DNA of 64,000 nucleotides. Origin: Eledone cirrhosa. Its lineage: Eukaryota. Shown piece by piece: positions 1-64,000 of the stretch (position 1 is the stretch's first letter; the number at the start of each line of letters is the position of its first letter). The position numbers and the translations under genes are program-made. The stretch covers positions 91,636,001 to 91,700,000 of the forward strand of contig OZ024747.1 of NCBI GenBank assembly GCA_964016885.1. The letters are read 5' to 3'. The notes beneath the pieces are model-generated. The model ran no database searches, was not told the origin of the DNA, and was given only the letters and a program-made list of their open reading frames with translations.

Positions 1-3000
1 GTATTCCCTCTCTAAGTAAGTATGTCTCTCTGTATGTAAGTATATCTCTCTGTATGTAAGTATGTCTCTCTGTGTGTATGTATGTCTCTCTGTATGTATG
101 TCTCTCTGTATGTATGTCTCTCTGTATGTATGTATGTCTCTATGTATGTAAGTATGTCTCTCTGTATGTAAGTATGTCTCTATGTGGGTAAGTATGTCTC
201 TCTGTATGTAAGTATGTCTCTCTGTATGTATGTCTCTCTGTATGTAAGTATGTCTCTATGTGTGTAAGTATGTCTCTCTGTATGTAAGTATGTCCCTCTG
301 TATGTATGTATGTCTCTCTGTATGTAAGTACGTCTCTCTGTATGTATGTCTCTCTGTATGTATGTATGTCTCTCTGTATGTATGTATGTCTCTATGTATG
401 TAAGTATGTCTCTCTGTATGTAAGTATGTCTCTATGTGTGTAAGTATGTCTCTCTGTATGTAAGTATGTCTCTCTGTATGTATGTCTCTCTGTATGTAAG
501 TATGTCTCTCTGTATGTAAGTAGGTCCCTCTGTATGTAAGTACGTCTCTCTGTATGTAAGTATGTCTCTCTGTATGTAAGTATGTCTCTATGTGGGTAAG
601 TATGTCTCTCTGTATGTAAGTATGTCTCTCTGTATGTATGTCTCTCTGTATGTAAGTATGTCTCTATGTGTGTAAGTATGTCTCTCTGTATGTAAGTATG
701 TCCCTCTGTATGTATGTATGTCTCTCTGTATGTAAGTACGTCTCTCTGTATGTATGTCTCTCTGTATGTATGTATGTCTCTCTGTATGTATGTATGTCTC
801 TATGTATGTAAGTATGTCTCTCTGTATGTAAGTATGTCTCTATGTGTGTAAGTATGTCTCTCTGTATGTAAGTATGTCTCTCTGTATGTATGTCTCTCTG
901 TATGTAAGTATGTCTCTCTGTATGTAAGTAGGTCCCTCTGTATGTAAGTACGTCTCTCTGTATGTAAGTATGTCTCTCTGTATGTAAGTATGTCTCTCTG
1001 TATGTATGTATGTCTCTCTGTATGTAAATATGTCTCTCTGTATGTAAGTATGTCTCTCTGTATGTATGTCTCTCTGTAAGTATGTCTCTCTGTATGTAAG
1101 TATGTCTCTATGTATGTATGTCTCTCTGTATGTAAGTATGTCTCTCTGTATATAAGTATGTCTCTCTGTATGTAAGTATGTCTCTCTGTATGTAAGTATG
1201 TCTCTCTGTATGTATGTCTCTCTGTATGTAAGTATGTCCCTCTGTATGTATGTATGTCTCTCTGTATGTAAGTACGTCTCTCTGTATGTATGTCTCTCTG
1301 TATGTATGTATGTCTCTCTGTATGTATGTATGTCTCTATGTATGTAAGTATGTCTCTCTGTATGTAAGTATGTCTCTATGTGTGTAAGTATGTCTCTCTG
1401 TATGTAAGTATGTCTCTCTGTATGTATGTCTCTCTGTATGTAAGTATGTCTCTCTGTATGTAAGTAGGTCCCTCTGTATGTAAGTACGTCTCTCTGTATG
1501 TAAGTATGTCTCTCTGTATGTAAGTATGTCTCTCTGTATGTATGTATGTCTCTCTGTATGTAAATATGTCTCTCTGTATGTAAGTATGTCTCTCTGTATG
1601 TATGTCTCTCTGTAAGTATGTCTCTCTGTATGTAAGTATGTCTCTATGTAAGTATGTCTCTCTGTATGTAAGTATGTCTCTCTGTATGTAAGTATGTCTC
1701 TCTGTATGTAAGTATGTTTCTCTGTAAGTACGTCTCTCTGTATGTAAGTATGTCTCTCTGTAAATATGTCTCTCTGTATGTAAGTATGTCTCTCTGTAAG
1801 TATGTCTCTCTGTATGTATGTATGTCTCTCTGTATGTATGTCTCTCTGTGTGTAAGTATGTCTCTCTGTGAGTATATCTCTCTGTATGTAAGTATGTCAT
1901 TCTGCATGTATGTCTCTCTGTATGTAAGTATGTCTCTCTGTATGTATGTATGTCTCTCTGTAAGTATGTCTCTCTGTATGTATATATGTCTCTCTGTATG
2001 TATGTATGTCTCTCTGTATGTAAGTATGTCTCTTTGTATGTCTCTCTGTATGTAAGTATGTCTCTCTGTATGTATGTCTCTCTGTATGTAAGTATGTCTC
2101 TCTGTATGTATGTCTCTCTGTATGTAAGTATGTCTCTCTGTATGTAAGTATGTCTCTCTGTGTGTAAGTATGTCTCTCTGTATGTATGTATGTCTCTCTG
2201 TATGTAAGTATGTCTCTCTGTATGTAAGTATGTCTCTCTGTATGTATGTCTCTCTGTATATATGTATGTCTCTCTGTATGTAATTATGTCTCTCTGTATG
2301 TAAGTATATCTCTCTGAATGTATGTGTGTCTCTTTGTATATAAGTATGTCTCTCTGTATGTAAGTATGTCTCTCTGTATGTAAGTATGTCCCTCTCTAAG
2401 TAAGTATGTCTCTCTGTATGTAAGTATATCTCTCTGTATGTAAGTATGTCTCTCTGTGTGTATGTATGTCTCTCTGTATGTATGTCTCTCTGTATGTATG
2501 TATGTCTCTATGTATGTAAGTATGTCTCTCTGTATGTAAGTATGTCTCTATGTGGGTAAGTATGTCTCTCTGTATGTAAGTATGTCTCTCTGTATGTATG
2601 TATGTCTCTCTGTATGTAAGTATGTCTCTCTGTATGTATGTGTCTCTGTATGTATGTATGTCTCTCTGTATGTATGTCTCTCTGTATGTAAGTATGTCTC
2701 TCTGTATATAAGTATGTCTCTCTGTATGTAAGTATGTCTCTCTGTATGTAAGTATGACTCTCTGTATGTATGTCTCTCTGTATGTAAGTATGTCTCTATG
2801 TGTGTAAGTATGTCTCTCTGTATGTAAGTATGTCCCTCTGTATGTATGTATGTCTCTCTGTATGTAAGTACGTCTCTCTGTATGTATGTCTCTCTGTATG
2901 TATGTATGTCTCTCTGTATGTATGTATGTCTCTATGTATGTAAGTATGTCTCTCTGTATGTAAGTATGTCTCTATGTTTGTAAGTATGTCTCTCTGTATG

Positions 3001-6000
3001 TAAGTATGTCTCTCTGTATGTATGTCTCTCTGTATGTAAGTATGTCTCTCTGTATGTAAGTAGGTCCCTCTGTATGTAAGTACGTCTCTCTGTATGTAAG
3101 TATGTCTCTCTGTATGTAAGTATGTCTCTCTGTATGTATGTATGTCTCTCTGTATGTAAGTATGTCTCTCTGTATGTAAGTATGTCTCTCTGTATGTATG
3201 TCTCTCTGTAAGTATGTCTCTCTGTATGTAAGTATGTCTCTATGTAAGTATGTCTCTCTGTATGTAAGTATGTCTCTCTGTATGTAAGTATGTCTCTCTG
3301 TATGTAAGTATGTCTCTCTGTATGTAAGTATGTTTCTCTGTAAGTACGTCTCTCTGTATGTAAGTATGTCTCTCTGTAAATATGTCTCTCTGTACGTAAG
3401 TATGTCTCTCTGTAAGTATGTCTCTCTGTATGTATGTATGTCTCTCTGTATGTATGTCTCTCTGTGTGTAAGTATGTCTCTCTGTGAGTATGTCTCTCTG
3501 TATGTAAGTATGTCATTCTGCATGTATGTCTCTCTGTATGTAAGTATGTCTCTCTGTATGTATGTATGTCTCTCTGTAAGTATGTCTCTCTGTATGTATA
3601 TATGTCTCTCTGTATGTATGTATGTCTCTCTGTATGTAAGTATGTCTCTTTGTATGTCTCTCTGTATGTAAGTATGTCTCTCTGTATGTATGTCTCTCTG
3701 TATGTAAGTATGTCTCTCTGTATGTATGTCTCTCTGTATGTAAGTATGTCTCTCTGTATGTAAGTATGTCTCTCTGTGTGTAAGTATGTCTCTCTGTATG
3801 TATGTATGTCTCTCTGTATGTAAGTATGTCTCTCTGTATGTAAGTATGTCTCTCTGTATGTATGTCTCTCTGTATATATGTATGTCTCTCTGTATGTAAT
3901 TATGTCTCTCTGAATGTATGTATGTCTCTCTGTATGTAAGTATGTCTCTGTGTATGTAAGTATGTCTCTCTGTATGTAAGTATGTCTCTCTGTATGTATG
4001 TATGTCTCTCTGTATGTAAGTATGTCTCTCTGTATGTATGTATGTCTCTCTGTATGTAAGTAAGTCTCTCTGTAAGTATGTATGTCTCTCTGTATGTAAG
4101 TATGTCTCTCTGTATGTATGTATGTCTCTCTGTATGTAAGTCTCTCTGTAAGTATGTCTCTCTGTATGTATGTCTCTCTGTATGTAAGTATGTCTCTCTG
4201 TATGTATGTCTCTCTTTATGTATGTCTCTCTGTCAGTACGTCTCTCAGTATGTAAGTATGTCTCTCTGTATGTAAGTATGTCTCTCTGTAAGTATGTCTC
4301 TCTGTATGTAAGTATGTCTCTCTGTAAGTATGTCTCTCTGTATGTAAGTATGTCTCTCTGTATGTATGTCTCTCTGTATGTAAGTATGTCTCTCTGTAAG
4401 TATGTCTCTCTGTATGTAGTATGTCTCTCTGTATGTATGTCTCTCTGTCTGTAAGTATGTCTCTCTGTAAGTATGTATGTCTCTCTGTATATAAGTATGT
4501 CTCTCTGTATGTAAGTATGTCTCTCTGTATGTAAGTATGTCTCTCTGTATGTAAGTATGTCTCTCTGTATGGAAGTATGTCTCTCTGTATGTATGTATGT
4601 CTCTCTCTGTGTAAGTATGTCTCTCTCTGTATGTAAGTATGTCTCTCTGTATGTAAGTATGTCTCTCTGTAAGTATGTCTCTCTGTATGTAAGTCTCTCT
4701 GTATGTAAGTATATCTCTCTGTATATATGTCTCTCTGTATGTAAGTATGTCTCTCTGTATGTAAGTATGTCTCTCTGTATGTATGTATGTCTCTCTGTAT
4801 GTATGTCTCTCTGTATGTAAGAATGTCTCTCTGTATATAAGTAGGTCTCTCTGTATGTCTCTCTGTAAGTATGTCTCTCTGTATGTATGTATGTCTCTAT
4901 GTATGTAAGTATGTCTCTCTGTATGTAAGTATGTCTCTCTGTATGTAAGTATGTCTCTCTGTATGTAAGTATGTCTCTCTGTAAGTATGTCTCTCTGTAT
5001 GTAAGTGTGTCTCTCTGTATGTAAGTTTGTCTCTCTGTATCTATGTATGTCTCTCTGTGTGTAAGTATGTCTCTCTGTATGTAAGTATGTCTCTCTGTAT
5101 GTAAGTATGTCTCTCTGTATGTAAGTATGTCTCTCTGTATGTAAGTATGTCTCTCTCTGTCTGTAAGTATGTCTCTCTGTATGTAAGTATGTCTCTCTGT
5201 ATGTAAGTATGTCTCTATGTATGCATGTCTCTCTGTATGTGAGTATGTCTCTCTGTATGTATGTCTCTCTGTATGTATGTCTCTTTGTATGTAAGAATGT
5301 CTCTCTGTATATAAGTAGGTCTCTCTGTATGTCTCTCTGTAAGTATGTCTCTCTGTATGTAAGTATGTCTCTCTGTATGTAAGTATGTCTCTCTGTATGT
5401 AAGTACGTCTCTCTGTATGTAAGTATGTCTCTCTGTATGTAAGTATGTCTCTCTGTATGTATGTATGTCTCTCTGTATGTATGTCTCTCTGTATGTAAGA
5501 ATGTCTATTTGTATATAAGTAGGTCTCTCTGTATGTCTCTCTGTATGTCTCTCTGTAAGTATGTCTCTCTGTATGTATGTATGTAATTATGTCTCTCTGT
5601 ATGTAAGTATGTCTCTCTGTATGTAAGTATGTCTCTCTGTATGTAAGTATGTCTCTCTGTATGTAAGTACGTCTCTCTGTATGTAAGTATGTCTCTCTGT
5701 ATGTAAGTATGTCTCTCTGTATGTATGTCTCTCTGTATGTAAGTATGTCTCTCTGTATGTAAGTATGTCTCTCTGTATGTATGTCTCTCTGTATGTAAGT
5801 ACGTCTCTCTGTATGTAAGTATGTCTCTGTATGTAAGTATGTCTCTCTGTATGTAAGTATGTCTCTCTGTATGTAAGTATGTCTCTCTGTAAGTATGTAT
5901 GTCTCTCTGTATGTAAGTATGTCTCTCTGTATGTAAGTATGTCTCTCTGTATGTAAGTACGTCTCTCTGTATGTAACTATGTCTCTCTGTATGTATGTCT

Positions 6001-7165
6001 CTTTGTATGTAAGTACGTCTCTCTGTATGTAAGTATGTCTCTCTGTATGTAAGTATGTCTCTCTGTATGTAAGTATGTCTCTCTGTATGTAAGTATGTCT
6101 CTCTGTATGTATGTCTCTCTGTATGTAAGTATGTCTCTCTGTATGTAAGTATGTCTCTCTGTAAGTATGTCTCTCTGTATGTAAGTATGTCTCTCTGTAT
6201 GTAAGTATGTCTCTCTGTATGTATGTCTCTCTGTATGTAAGTATGTCTCTCTGTATGTATGTATGTCTCTCTGTATGTAAGTATGTCTCTCTGTATGTAA
6301 GTATGTCTCTCTGTATGTAAGTATGTCTCTCTGTATGTATGTATGTATGTATGTCTCTCTGTATGTAAGTATGTCTCTCTGTATGTAAGTATGTCTCTCT
6401 GTATGTAAGTATGTCTCTCTGTATGTAAGTATGTCTCTCTGTAAGTATGTCTCTCTGTATGTAAGTACGTCTCTCTGTATGTAAGTATGTCTCTCTGTAT
6501 GTAAGTATGTCTCTCTGTATGTAAGTATGTCTATCTGTATGTATGTATGTCTCTCTGTATGTAAGTATGTCTCTCTGTATGTATGTATGTCTCTCTGTAT
6601 GTATGTCTCTCTGTATGTATGTCTCTCTGTATGTAAGTATATCTCTCTGTATGTAAGTATGTCTCTCCGTATGTAACTATGTCTCTCTGTATGTAAGTAT
6701 GTCTCTCTGTATGTATGTATGTCTCTCTGTATGTAAGTATGTCTCTCTGTAAGTATGTATGTCTCTCTGTATGTAAGTATGTCTCTCTGTATGTAAGTAT
6801 GTCTCTCTGTATGTAAGTATGTCTCTCTGTAAGTATGTCTCTCTGTATGTAAGTATATCTCTCTGTATGTAAGTATGTCTCTCTGTAAGTATGTCTCTCT
6901 GTATGTATGTCTCTCTGTAAGTATGTATGTCTCTCTGTATGTAAGTATGTCTCTCTGTATGTAAGTATGTCTCTCTCTGTATGTAAGTACGTCTCTCTGT
7001 ATGTAAGTATGTCTCTCTGTATTTAAGTATGTCTCTTTGTATAAAAGTAGGTCTCTCTGTATGTAAGTATGTCTCTCTGTATGTATGTCTCTCTGTAAGT
7101 ATGTCTCTCTGTAAGTAAGTAGGTCTCTCTGTATGTATGTCTCTCTGTCTGTAACTATGTATGCA
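1..7165. repeat. Satellite array, basic unit TATGTCTCTCTGTATGTAAG (20 bp) mixed with 16-bp and other variants; runs off the left edge
   Basis: Directly visible tandem repetition; diagnostic variants recur at 408-bp and 1616-bp offsets. Confidence 0.97.
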
Positions 7166-14274: not shown

Positions 14275-14361
14275 ACCTTCTGACGAGAGTTTATCTTTTC
14301 AATGGAGGCCCGCAAGAACTGTCCATTTATTTTTGAGACTCGAAAGCGATTCGGTAAAGGT
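14275..14361 (+). ncRNA. Type I hammerhead ribozyme (one stem III mismatch) inside a ~345-bp (TA)n-flanked insert (14087-14432)
   Basis: Stem I ACCTT/AAGGT, core CTGACGA, stem II GAGTTT/AGACTC, GAAA, stem III gCGattCGg, cleavage triplet GTA (14354-14356). Confidence 0.72.
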
Positions 14362-25228: not shown

Positions 25229-25459
25229 GCACATGCATACATATGTGTATGTGAAAGACAGATGTCTGAGGGAGAGTGTATGACAATAGGATTTGCAGCT
25301 GCAATTCTTATTGTTATTCTATATATACACTCCGCAAACTGCAGCCGACATAAAATTGGAGCACAACTCAACGAGAGATGGACCCCGTATCAGAATCGAG
25401 TACTTCAACCACCATCGCAACTAGTAACCAGAATTTACTCACATAATAATAATAATAAT

Positions 25460-26255
25460 AATTGTTACTACGTTAAGCACAAGGCCAGCAATTACCAGTG
25501 CATTACTGATACTTTATTTTATCGACCCCGTAAGGATGAAAGGCAAAGTTAACCTCGGCGGGATTTGAACTCAGAATGGCAAGGGCCGTAACTCTATGCG
25601 CCAAAGCATGGCATCCGACACTCTACCAATACTGCCAATCCACCGCCTTACCAATAATAATAATATTACTACGTTAGGCACAAGGCCAGCAATTACCAGT
25701 GTATTACTGGTACTTTATTTTATCGACCCCGTAAGGATGAAAGGCAAAGTTAACCTCGGCGGGATTTGAACTCAGAATGGCAAGGGCCGTAACTCTATGC
25801 GCCAAAGCATGGCATCCGACACTCTACCAATACTGCCAATCCACCGCCTTACCAATAATAATAATATTACTACGTTAGGCACAAGGCCAGCAATTACCAG
25901 TGTATTACTGGTACTTTATTTTATCGACCCCGTAAGGATGAAAGGCAAAGTTAACCTCGGCGGGATTTGAACTCAGAATGGCAAGGGCCGTAACTCTATG
26001 CGCCAAAGCATGGCATCCTACACTCTACCAATACTGCCAATCCACCGCCTTACCAATAATAATAATATTACTACGTTAGGCACAAGGCCAGCAATTACCA
26101 GTGTATTACTGGTACTTTATTTTATCGACCCCGTAAGGATGAAAGGCAAAGTTAACCTCGGCGGGATTTGAACTCAGAATGGCAAGGGCCGTAACTCTAT
26201 GCGCCAAAGCATGGCATCCGACACTCTACCAATACTGCCAATCCACCGCCTTACC

Positions 26256-26303
<48 letters not shown>

Positions 26304-33125: not shown

Positions 33126-33216
<91 letters not shown>

Positions 33217-33341
33217 GAAATACAACCCTATATCTATCCATTGATAACTTATTTGTATTGGGAAAGAAGAAAATATATGTCCCAAGGCTCTGATACCATC
33301 AACACAATAAACACAGAGCTGGCATATCTAAGAACTGCCTA

Positions 33342-33399
33342 ACTGCCTGATGAGCTCATAGCCATTCAATGGCTATCATCGAAATATATATATAGCAGT
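33342..33399 (+). ncRNA. Type I hammerhead ribozyme, copy 1
   Basis: Stem I ACTGC/GCAGT, CTGATGA, G...C closing an ATAGCCATT-c-AATGGCTAT hairpin, GAAA, palindromic TATATATA stem III, ATA cleavage site. Confidence 0.8.
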
Positions 33400-33446
33400 A
33401 AATAAAGGATTATGAGTTCATGCAATTGACTTATGTCTCGTCATCG

Positions 33447-33510
<64 letters not shown>

Positions 33511-33635
33511 GAAATACAACCCTATATCTATCCATTGATAACTTATTTGTATTGGGAAAGAAGAAAATATATGTCCCAAGGCTCTGATACCATCAACACA
33601 ATAAACACAGAGCTGGCATATCTAAGAACTGCCTA

Positions 33636-33693
33636 ACTGCCTGATGAGCTCATAGCCATTCAATGGCTATCATCGAAATATATATATAGCAGT
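33636..33693 (+). ncRNA. Type I hammerhead ribozyme, copy 2
   Basis: Same sequence as 33342-33399. Confidence 0.8.
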
Positions 33694-33740
33694 AAATAAA
33701 GGATTATGAGTTCATGCAATTGACTTATGTCTCGTCATCG

Positions 33741-34150
<410 letters not shown>

Positions 34151-62388: not shown

Positions 62389-62392
<4 letters not shown>

Positions 62393-62858
62393 AACTCTGG
62401 ATGTCGGTGAGCATGTCCAGCCAACCTCAGTCTCCTCTGTGTCACTTTTGAGCTGACTTTTGGGATGCTCCCATACAGCTCCGACTTTTTCATCCTCAGT
62501 GTATACTGATTAATGTTCAGAGCCATCCTCAGCATTCTCGTGTAGCACCCATCCACGATCTGAGTGAGTCTCTTGGTCAGTGTCCAAGTCTCTGACCCAT
62601 ACAGCAGCACAGACTCCACTACAGCAATGAAGAGGCGGATTTTCAGGTCTCTACGACATCCAGAGTTGACATTGCACTCAGTGCTCCTTTGGGAGCCCCT
62701 ACATGGACACACTAGAAGAGGAAGACCAAGGTTAACATATGTTGATGCCCTAAGGACAGACACTGGTCTGTTGGAGATGCAGGATATGGCAGCGATAATG
62801 AGGGACAGAGACCGCTGGAGAGAACTCGTCCATGGATCTCGGGAATTTTACCCGCCTT

Positions 62859-62860
<2 letters not shown>
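62389..62860 (+). mobile_element. 5'-inverted RTE-like LINE 3' fragment in (TA)n
   Basis: Minus part ESVLLYGSETWTLTK...RLAGHAHRHPELT and plus part RHPELTLHSVLLWEP...GRPRLTYVD...DRDRWR* form one continuous ORF2 C-terminus. Confidence 0.9.
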
Positions 62861-62903
<43 letters not shown>

Positions 62904-63136
62904 TTAGAAACACACAGATACATGCGGACACACACATATATACATGAATGCATCCGCACCCAACTGTGAGTTAAGGGTGCCAACTTCACCGATGTTGCTC
63001 AATGAATGACTGGGACAGACCAATTCAGTTGAACTAGACTGAACCAGTATCAGAGTTAAAAATACATTATGAAGAGAGAAGAAACATTTAGATATAATTA
63101 GTAATAAAATGTATCATACCTAAACTGCTCCTAAAT

Positions 63137-63226
63137 TCCTCGACTACGTAGTTTCGTGGCATAAACAAAAACAATATATCATAAAGACATAGAGTCCTTG
63201 CGAGGTCTGCCGACTTATCAAGAGGA
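63137..63226 (-). ncRNA. Type I hammerhead ribozyme with U3-A8 core variant, copy 1
   Basis: TCCTC-TTGATAA-GTcGGCA...TGCCAC-GAAA-CTACGTAG-TC-GAGGA. Confidence 0.78.
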
Positions 63227-63731
63227 TACCTCATTTTACTAGTCTCAAGAACGCGTCTACACGACGTGCGAAAGAGTCCCAAAAGGCGGAGGGGGAGATA
63301 GTCACGCGATATAACGGTCGAGAAACAGAGCTAAGCCTCTTATAACCCCGAAGAAAATACCACGGAGGCGGAGGGGGTATTTATATCGAGGCCGCAGAAG
63401 AGGTGGTGAAGAAGGCGAGAAGTATGAGTAATGGAAGCTTTCCAGCTGTCCCCACACTTCAAAGATTGCTCGACCAGAGGGAGTTATTAACAATATATTT
63501 AGAAACACACAGATACATGCGGACACACACATATATACATGAATGCATCCGCACCCAACTGTGAGTTAAGGGTGCCAACTTCACCGATGTTGCTCAATGA
63601 ATGACTGGGACAGACCAATTCAGTTGAACTAGACTGAACCAGTATCAGAGTTAAAAATACATTATGAAGAGAGAAGAAACATTTAGATATAATTAGTAAT
63701 AAAATGTATCATACCTAAACTGCTCCTAAAT

Positions 63732-63821
63732 TCCTCGACTACGTAGTTTCGTGGCATAAACAAAAACAATATATCATAAAGACATAGAGTCCTTGCGAGG
63801 TCTGCCGACTTATCAAGAGGA
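63732..63821 (-). ncRNA. Type I hammerhead ribozyme with U3-A8 core variant, copy 2
   Basis: Same as 63137-63226 at +595 bp. Confidence 0.78.
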
Positions 63822-64000
63822 TACCTCATTTTACTAGTCTCAAGAACGCGTCTACACGACGTGAGAAAGAATCCCAAAAGGCGGAGGGGGAGATAGTCAC
63901 GCGATATAACGGTCGAGAAACAGAGCTAAGCCTCTTATAACCCCGAAGAAAATACCACGGAGGCGGAGGGGGTATTTATATCGAGGCCGCAGAAGAGGTG

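Follow-up and report, generated by a model that had tools for sequence, protein, structure and literature searches.

A tandem 595-nt hammerhead family with a U3-A8 core and a likely PLE insertion footprint in Eledone cirrhosa

Natural covariation of hammerhead positions 3 and 8 to U3-A8 was published in 2011 by Perreault et al. (PMC3088659), a paper that credits an earlier study with in vitro activity of U3-A8 ribozymes and in which pseudoknots of the kind considered below are common among hammerheads. In 2014, about 1,300 U3-A8 motifs were reported from Schistosoma PLEs, the variant being that of the Cercyon PLE of Schistosoma mansoni (PMC4209133). The same report describes poor in vitro cleavage of PLE-type hammerheads even as dimers, and for dimer-dependent hammerheads it proposes cleavage in multimers together with a stable monomer circle. 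Both multimer cleavage and a stable monomer circle were shown for axolotl retrozymes (PMC7229834). PLE insertions are described as carrying inverted 5′-truncated copies and a one-sided tail of 30-40 bp, the origin of which is named as an open question (PMC8557442).

The DNA analyzed here, called the window, is a stretch of 64,000 nucleotides from the 3.0-Gb, TA microsatellite-rich animal genome of Eledone cirrhosa (GCA_964016885.1, contig OZ024747.1, forward-strand positions 91,636,001 to 91,700,000). An earlier reading of the sequence alone had placed a 595-bp tandem unit with a variant hammerhead at 62897..64000. The tandem within the window was correctly seen, but that extent missed an inverted second arm, the (TA)n target, and two fixed ends, features that point to the mobilizing enzyme. 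The insertion is 1,777 bp long and carries four hammerheads in two head-to-head arms within (TA)n, running 673 bases beyond the window end through a third hammerhead and then an inverted arm with the fourth. From left to right in the window, the first arm, on the minus strand, consists of 245 nt, two units of 595 nt, and a truncated third unit, followed by a short junction insert; the inverted arm consists of monomer positions 466-595 followed by 1-80 and terminates in (TA)n. The tandem period is 595; comparison of the two window copies over 509 positions gave 2 differences, neither of them in the ribozyme; and the third hammerhead has a duplication of approximately 20 nt in loop 2. The features are as follows.

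62774..62792, minus: flank stretch with a 19-nt match that recurs at the two-arm junction (match at L031 4449-4467)
62861..62896, no strand: (TA)n microsatellite forming the left side of the target site, from the sequence and from the family's 3′ ends, which adjoin (TA)n
62897..63141, minus: terminal partial unit, monomer 1-245 counted from the predicted cut, with the fixed "long" 3′ end at 62897
63137..63232, minus: type I hammerhead copy 1, with U3 at 63221, A8 at 63216, G12 at 63155, and C17 at 63142
63226-63222 with 63141-63137, minus: stem I of hammerhead copy 1, in which stem II is extended
63232-63228 (upstream of stem I) with 63206-63202 (stem II internal loop), minus: candidate 5-bp pseudoknot, inferred
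63143..63152, minus: 10-nt palindromic stem III region, predicted by folding to pair with that of the neighboring unit
63142..63736, minus: complete 595-nt monomer, predicted cut to predicted cut
63657, minus: monomer position 80, the fixed "short" 3′ end, read through here and used by the inverted arm outside the window
63732..63827, minus: type I hammerhead copy 2, identical to copy 1, with U3 at 63816, A8 at 63811, and C17 at 63737
63737..64000, minus: in-window part of the second complete monomer, the whole of which is L031 3738-4332
L031 4465-4674: inverted arm, after the truncated third unit and junction insert, ending at monomer 80 in (TA)n

The monomer is 42.5% GC, has a longest ATG frame of 76 amino acids, and contains no RT or GIY-YIG open reading frame (ORF). 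The 19-nt junction match to the flank, some 105 bases from the left end, is inverted, like a templated repair insert. Other repeats are found in the window: a fragment between two (TA)n runs at 62390-62860, which by eye looks like the 3′ portion of an RT gene from a non-LTR retrotransposon and part of which is also found in the L046 flank; a 20-bp unit arrayed over 7 kb at 8-7153; four copies of a 201-bp unit at 25451-26268; and a 294-bp exact duplication between (TA)n runs at 33157-33800.

The minus-strand motif is present in both tandem copies as the sequence-only reading gave it and is identical in the two. It consists of a stem I of 5 pairs, a stem II of 6 bp with one bulge, GAAA, a 10-nt palindrome, and C17, and its core has a Watson-Crick 3-8 pair, A15.1-U16.1, and an NUH cut site in addition to GAAA, as in type I hammerheads. 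There are three helices, with stem I open; stem III is weak alone, adding 0.7 kcal/mol, and is predicted to form between copies. Two details of the earlier description were revised: the stem III palindrome is indeed palindromic but spans 10 nt (A15.1 to U16.1), and the region described as a long loop exists but is predicted to fold into a hairpin of approximately 13 pairs next to an internal loop. The expectation that strict searches would miss the variant was correct, as Rfam hammerhead models gave no match at the locus at either the gathering score or E values up to 10. The missing match reflects a limit of detection for the U3-A8 variant and does not disqualify the motif as a hammerhead. 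When the window and loci L001-L085 were scanned for hammerheads in general, there were 204 matches on forward sequences and 0 on reversed sequences, with overlapping loci counted twice.

Folding was computed for the ribozyme, the circular monomer, and a two-ribozyme transcript. Plain MFE folding of the ribozyme region alone was uninformative (z of −0.65). The circular monomer has a predicted fold of −182 kcal/mol (z of −6.1 versus 40 dinucleotide shuffles) in which stems I and III are unformed. The palindrome is predicted to form a self-duplex of −12.9 kcal/mol and no hairpin, and in the two-ribozyme transcript, the predicted pair probability of stem III is approximately 0.33 between copies and 0 within a copy. 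The proposal that the palindromic stem III suits dimeric folding thus held up, the pairing being predicted solely between neighboring units. The predicted folds fit cleavage in multimers combined with a stable monomer circle.

A candidate pseudoknot is formed by five bases upstream of stem I that are complementary to five in the stem II internal loop and are unchanged across subfamilies. It shows no covariation inside the family, and the chance of 10 unchanged letters is 0.08. At almost the same offsets, a different complementary pair occurs in an unrelated C3-G8 family. Homology to C3-G8 hammerhead families with a long stem II was considered and rejected, as the local alignment scores of 7/7 families lay inside the range obtained with shuffles or at its edge, and thus the shared pseudoknot geometry is one of architecture only. 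Four other C3-G8 hammerhead-like motifs, belonging to other repeat families, are found in the window at approximately 14280 (+), 19524 (−), 31055 (+), and 61830 (+); the family of the motif at 14280 has a long stem II, and its candidate pseudoknot shares the offsets of that in the 595-nt family.

To judge from its copy number, the family is large. A DNA search returned 178 matches (39 of 1,525 candidates scored), nearly all 95-100% identical, and a genome-wide count of a 14-nt stem II/III motif gave 8,135 occurrences versus 9 for the reversed control, which makes chance an unlikely source. The sequence-only reading had raised the question of whether other genomic copies keep U3-A8; they do, as the core was found 30-60 nt upstream of 7,057 of the 8,135 motifs, and genome-wide, a C3-G8 core was found with none of them. 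Of the other 1,078 motifs, those among the matches listed were 5′ truncations, junctions, or one A9 point change. The scan of L001-L085 indicated U3-A8 in 184/185 cores and U3-G8 in one, again with overlapping loci counted twice. Unit size is 587-595 in young subfamilies. We conclude that the repeat is a young, high-copy, dispersed, protein-free family. We note that L048 (1773-5628) holds two near-identical two-armed insertions 2.55 kb apart with an identical inner junction, indicative of local duplication after insertion.

An older subfamily, approximately 77% identical to the window copy, retains U at position 3 in 28/29 copies and A at position 8 in 29/29. When the window copy was compared with the majority letter of these 29 copies, 0/55 ribozyme positions differed versus 102/450 elsewhere (Fisher P = 3e-6), a comparison that carries a small bias, as part of the ribozyme, with a tolerance of up to 3 mismatches, served as the anchor for the old copies. 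Both arms of one insertion, L073, carry a compensatory stem I change from U-A to C-G, and L039 and L089 have U.G at the same pair. In the predicted hairpin of the former "long loop," A-U and G-U pairs interchange between subfamilies. The earlier suggestion that the ribozyme variant is under selection is supported by this pattern, which in the sequence comparison takes the form of purifying selection between subfamilies. Judged by structure and conservation, the motif is a hammerhead, and its conservation lends indirect support to the predicted self-cleavage.

To place the core in the context of the genome, matches were counted for a pattern that required G10.1-C11.1 and a short stem II, excluded the 595-nt family, and allowed a pyrimidine at position 3 and a purine at position 8. 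There were 52,940 matches in total, of which 32,196 were U-A at positions 3 and 8 (reversed control, 5,300), 18,044 were C-G (reversed control, 812), and 2,700, by subtraction, were mismatched, a number at the level of the control (2,596). The control probably overstates the background because the reversed control lacks the CpG of the pattern. A hand count of the first 100 matches listed gave 47 U-A, 52 C-G, and 1 mismatched. One PLE family dominates the U-A count, and several distinct U3-A8 families are still listed. We conclude that most pattern matches in this genome have the U3-A8 core and that the core is neither new nor, here, out of the ordinary.

The sequence-only reading had interpreted U3-A8 as a compensatory double change that keeps the 3-8 pair. 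Genome-wide, the Watson-Crick pair is kept and mismatches are at the control level, but the covariation is seen only across families because the 595-nt family has no C3-G8 member. Hammerhead families at C1:509515 and C1:14121101 (L157) of G000 have near-identical stem II starts, one with C3-G8 and the other with U3-A8, and their sequences suggest a core switch within one lineage. By itself, the core variant changes nothing, since it was already published. A U3-A8 majority with mismatches at background is nonetheless strong natural support for the 3-8 pair, and it is a warning for ribozyme censuses fixed on CUGANGA.

To determine how the family inserts, 77 loci were analyzed, consisting of 26 top-matching loci (30 fetched, duplicates merged) and 51 taken in positional order on contig 1. 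Outer 3′ ends of the element were followed by (TA)4 within 20 nt in 112/121 cases, and all 44 of the two-armed insertions were head-to-head. One end near monomer position 80 and one near 245 were found in 39/40 classifiable two-armed insertions (P = 4e-11); L020 has two short ends, and four two-armed insertions were unclassed. The 39/40 count excludes the 29 loci of the old subfamily, where ends are at approximately 81 and 252, because the strict end classifier is unreliable there (alignments stop near position 166). Single-armed copies comprised 18 with the short end, 12 with the long end, and 3 with another end. Inner 5′ ends are ragged, and target-site duplications are unreadable inside (TA)n. 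Choice of ends by TA microhomology alone was rejected as insufficient, since TATA and ATAT words occur at several unused places in the monomer. We conclude that the inverted copy and one-sided tail of the family, as read from its sequences, have the PLE pattern with a longer tail.

The relationship between the two arms of an insertion was determined by haplotype comparison at 25 loci. In the array of L032 and L033, which holds approximately 14 units, the arms differ at 22 of 30,124 pairwise-compared letters, versus 0.5% to the nearest other locus; in L085, they differ at 11 of 7,734, versus 1.5%. The arms of L053, L063, and L052 are likewise far closer to each other than to other loci. In small insertions (e.g., L008, L021, L025, L027, L009, and L061), the distance between arms is not below that to the nearest other locus, and the argument for a single template thus rests on a few long or diverged arrays; several small young insertions give no power. 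We conclude that both arms of the longest arrays are one haplotype.

A coding PLE was found via loci chosen for other U3-A8 motifs, and 13 further copies were fetched, mostly for long open frames. It consists of an ORF for RT and GIY-YIG, approximately 1 kb of 3′ sequence, and then a U3-A8 hammerhead, and its ORFs match RVT_1 and GIY-YIG. The hammerhead was present in 13/13 fetched copies, and a long ORF was present in 12/13, with a length of 771-791 amino acids in 11. Two-armed copies had one short and one long end at (TA)n in 6/6 cases, the ends lying approximately 105 and 170 nt after U3. By its motifs, this L199-type coding PLE might be Neptune-type. L199 (1232-4696; also L197, L200, and L203) is a young, apparently intact PLE of approximately 4.7 kb that ends in a U3-A8 hammerhead and has two overlapping frames: a 409-amino-acid frame without a Pfam match, upstream of a 775-amino-acid RT/GIY-YIG frame, alike in four copies. 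Canonical PLEs have one ORF. The extra 409-amino-acid frame could indicate a frameshift, an intron, or a true ORF1.

The pairing of one short with one long end in the coding PLE establishes that PLEs of this genome leave such a footprint and is not proof that this element is the partner. When the monomer was compared by relaxed blastn with PLE loci L116-L208, which represent few of the PLE families of the genome, only CA/TG-repeat matches were found, apart from one separate insertion of the 595-nt family in L198. Since no coding element sharing the unit sequence was found in the PLE loci tested, the partner PLE is inferred from the footprint alone. Another candidate, the PLE family seeded from L078, was rejected because no hammerhead core was found up to 520 nt after the ORF in 30/30 loci. 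One finding against PLE-type mobilization is that the tail is 165 nt here versus approximately 65 nt in the coding PLE and 30-40 bp in PLEs as described (PMC8557442). From the footprint in the sequences, we conclude that the family is likely PLE mobilized.

The stretch occurs in six sequencing runs of unrecorded kind, and the observations from two of them, given here, carry no weight in the conclusions. Run X4 covered window positions 63285-63909 with one 620-nt contig made of a 590-nt unit and a 30-nt terminal overlap; in the assembly graph the contig closes on itself, with no branching at either fixed end, and it could represent either a circle or tandem DNA at trace depth. Run X6 contained clustered A-to-G changes on the strand opposite the ribozyme at window positions 63147-63347 and at L085 2120-2588, where low-depth contigs (depth <5) had A-to-G at 28 and 33 places versus G-to-A at 7 and 5. 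Clustered A-to-G changes are the pattern of adenosine editing in double-stranded RNA. Double-stranded RNA would form from head-to-head arms.

The best explanation, which we regard as probable though far from settled, is that the family is a non-LTR retrozyme, the RNA circle of which is copied, likely by a PLE enzyme, into (TA)n as one arm or two back-to-back arms. Transcription would proceed through two or more units, and the transcript would be cleaved after C17, with stem III formed between neighboring units via the 10-nt palindrome and the 5-bp pseudoknot helping. Ligation would then produce a monomer circle, and the ribozyme is predicted to stay unfolded in it. GIY-YIG would nick (TA)n, and each of the two DNA ends would act as a primer, at monomer position 80 for one and 245 for the other. 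Reverse transcription around the circle for a variable number of turns would generate arms with fixed 3′ ends and with ragged 5′ ends joined in the middle of the element.

One way in which the same element and PLE enzyme could act differently is by copying a linear template, such that uncleaved or partly cleaved tandem transcripts are copied once per DNA end, with circles either not formed or leading nowhere. The TA target, the polarity, and the fixed ends would be explained equally well, and the coding PLE yields the same two-armed pattern from presumably linear RNA. Multimers could also survive, as metazoan PLE hammerheads are described as cleaving slowly (PMC4209133) and axolotl multimers are reported as visible on northern blots (PMC7229834). 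Arms of 6-7 near-identical units each, however, could be made only from uncut transcripts that are long and homogeneous; folding of the whole monomer predicts a stable circle with the ribozyme switched off; and circles were shown for coral, mussel, and axolotl retrozymes (PMC7229834). We consider a linear template unlikely but still deserving of weight.

Alternatively, the PLE enzyme could insert one or two units and the arrays could grow later in DNA by unequal crossing-over or slippage, as satellites do, with a ribozyme that was inherited from a PLE end and matters little. A local-amplification model has been proposed for vertebrate retrozymes (10.64898/2026.07.22.740005), most insertions here have fewer than three full units, and recent local duplication would also make the units of an arm alike. 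Growth in DNA is nonetheless improbable, as ribozyme positions are invariant across approximately 23% divergence elsewhere, both inverted arms of one insertion expanded while sharing one haplotype, and the outer ends of long arrays are those of short ones. That the units are truncated ends (pLTRs) of an unfound autonomous PLE and no independent replicon is very improbable: the most abundant other U3-A8 family of the genome is indeed the end of a coding PLE, but at the loci examined, whole units follow one another head to tail, uninterrupted by coding sequence, and abut (TA)n directly at their ends, the longest ATG frame is that of 76 amino acids, and similarity to the PLE loci fetched was absent apart from the separate insertion in L198.

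With a circle as the preferred template, we tentatively propose a broader reading, which we rate as quite possible but would not yet bet on: the long two-armed arrays may be the product of a PLE enzyme copying one RNA circle from both cut ends at two fixed priming sites, and most PLE-linked hammerheads of this animal may have switched to U3-A8. If so, standard CUGANGA censuses would miss more than half of the PLE-linked hammerheads here, and the intact young PLE, which shares the core and the end pattern, would form with the family an enzyme-plus-circle pair for the unsolved mechanism of PLE integration. The footprint ties a noncoding retrozyme to PLE machinery by mechanism, not by phylogeny, and with the intact PLE in the genome, rolling-circle copying and the way in which the one-sided tail arises could be put to the test.

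Among described systems, the Cercyon PLE variant of S. mansoni resembles the 595-nt family in having a compensatory 3-8 pair in a PLE-linked type I hammerhead, but as described, U3-A8 in Schistosoma is a minority variant in minimal, mostly single motifs, whereas here it is in a full-size tandem unit (PMC4209133). Endonuclease-bearing PLEs and their nonautonomous passengers, such as MRC1, are alike in their 5′ truncation, partial tandems, and inverted 5′-truncated copy, as well as in a tail at one end only and in microsatellite targets that hide target-site duplications (Craig et al. 2021, PMC8557442). In contrast to them, the 595-nt unit has no ORF, its tail is 165 nt, and both arms can hold many whole units. 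Naiads, a (TA)n-targeting PLE clade, are described as being without canonical hammerheads, unlike the 595-nt family (PMC8557442).

The family also closely resembles the metazoan non-LTR retrozymes (Cervera and de la Pena 2020, PMC7229834; Li, Clavereau and Pollet 2026, 10.64898/2026.07.22.740005). As these sources describe them, they too consist of tandem noncoding units of <50% GC with one type I hammerhead each, are dispersed in thousands of copies, have a palindromic stem III suited to dimer cleavage and a highly paired predicted circle, and co-occur with PLEs. They differ in unit length (approximately 170-400 nt, versus 595 nt here), and the U3-A8 core, long stem II, and candidate pseudoknot set the present family apart; moreover, their circles were shown, whereas that of the 595-nt family is predicted only. 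Head-to-head arms with two fixed ends in (TA)n were not found by a term search of the two sources, and a search of the openly accessible literature found no published cephalopod or two-ended retrozyme. The likeness to retrozymes raised at the outset was upheld insofar as the element fits the class by its tandem hammerhead units, its noncoding nature, and its dispersal: there are at least two consecutive units, each with a type I hammerhead, GC content is low, no LTR structure was seen, with ends abutting (TA)n, and copies are dispersed and numerous. The unit size of 595 nt lies outside the published range, which is descriptive and not a mechanistic criterion. We conclude that, by every sequence criterion tested except size, the element is a non-LTR retrozyme and that the 595-nt family adds a good new case to a kind of element already known.
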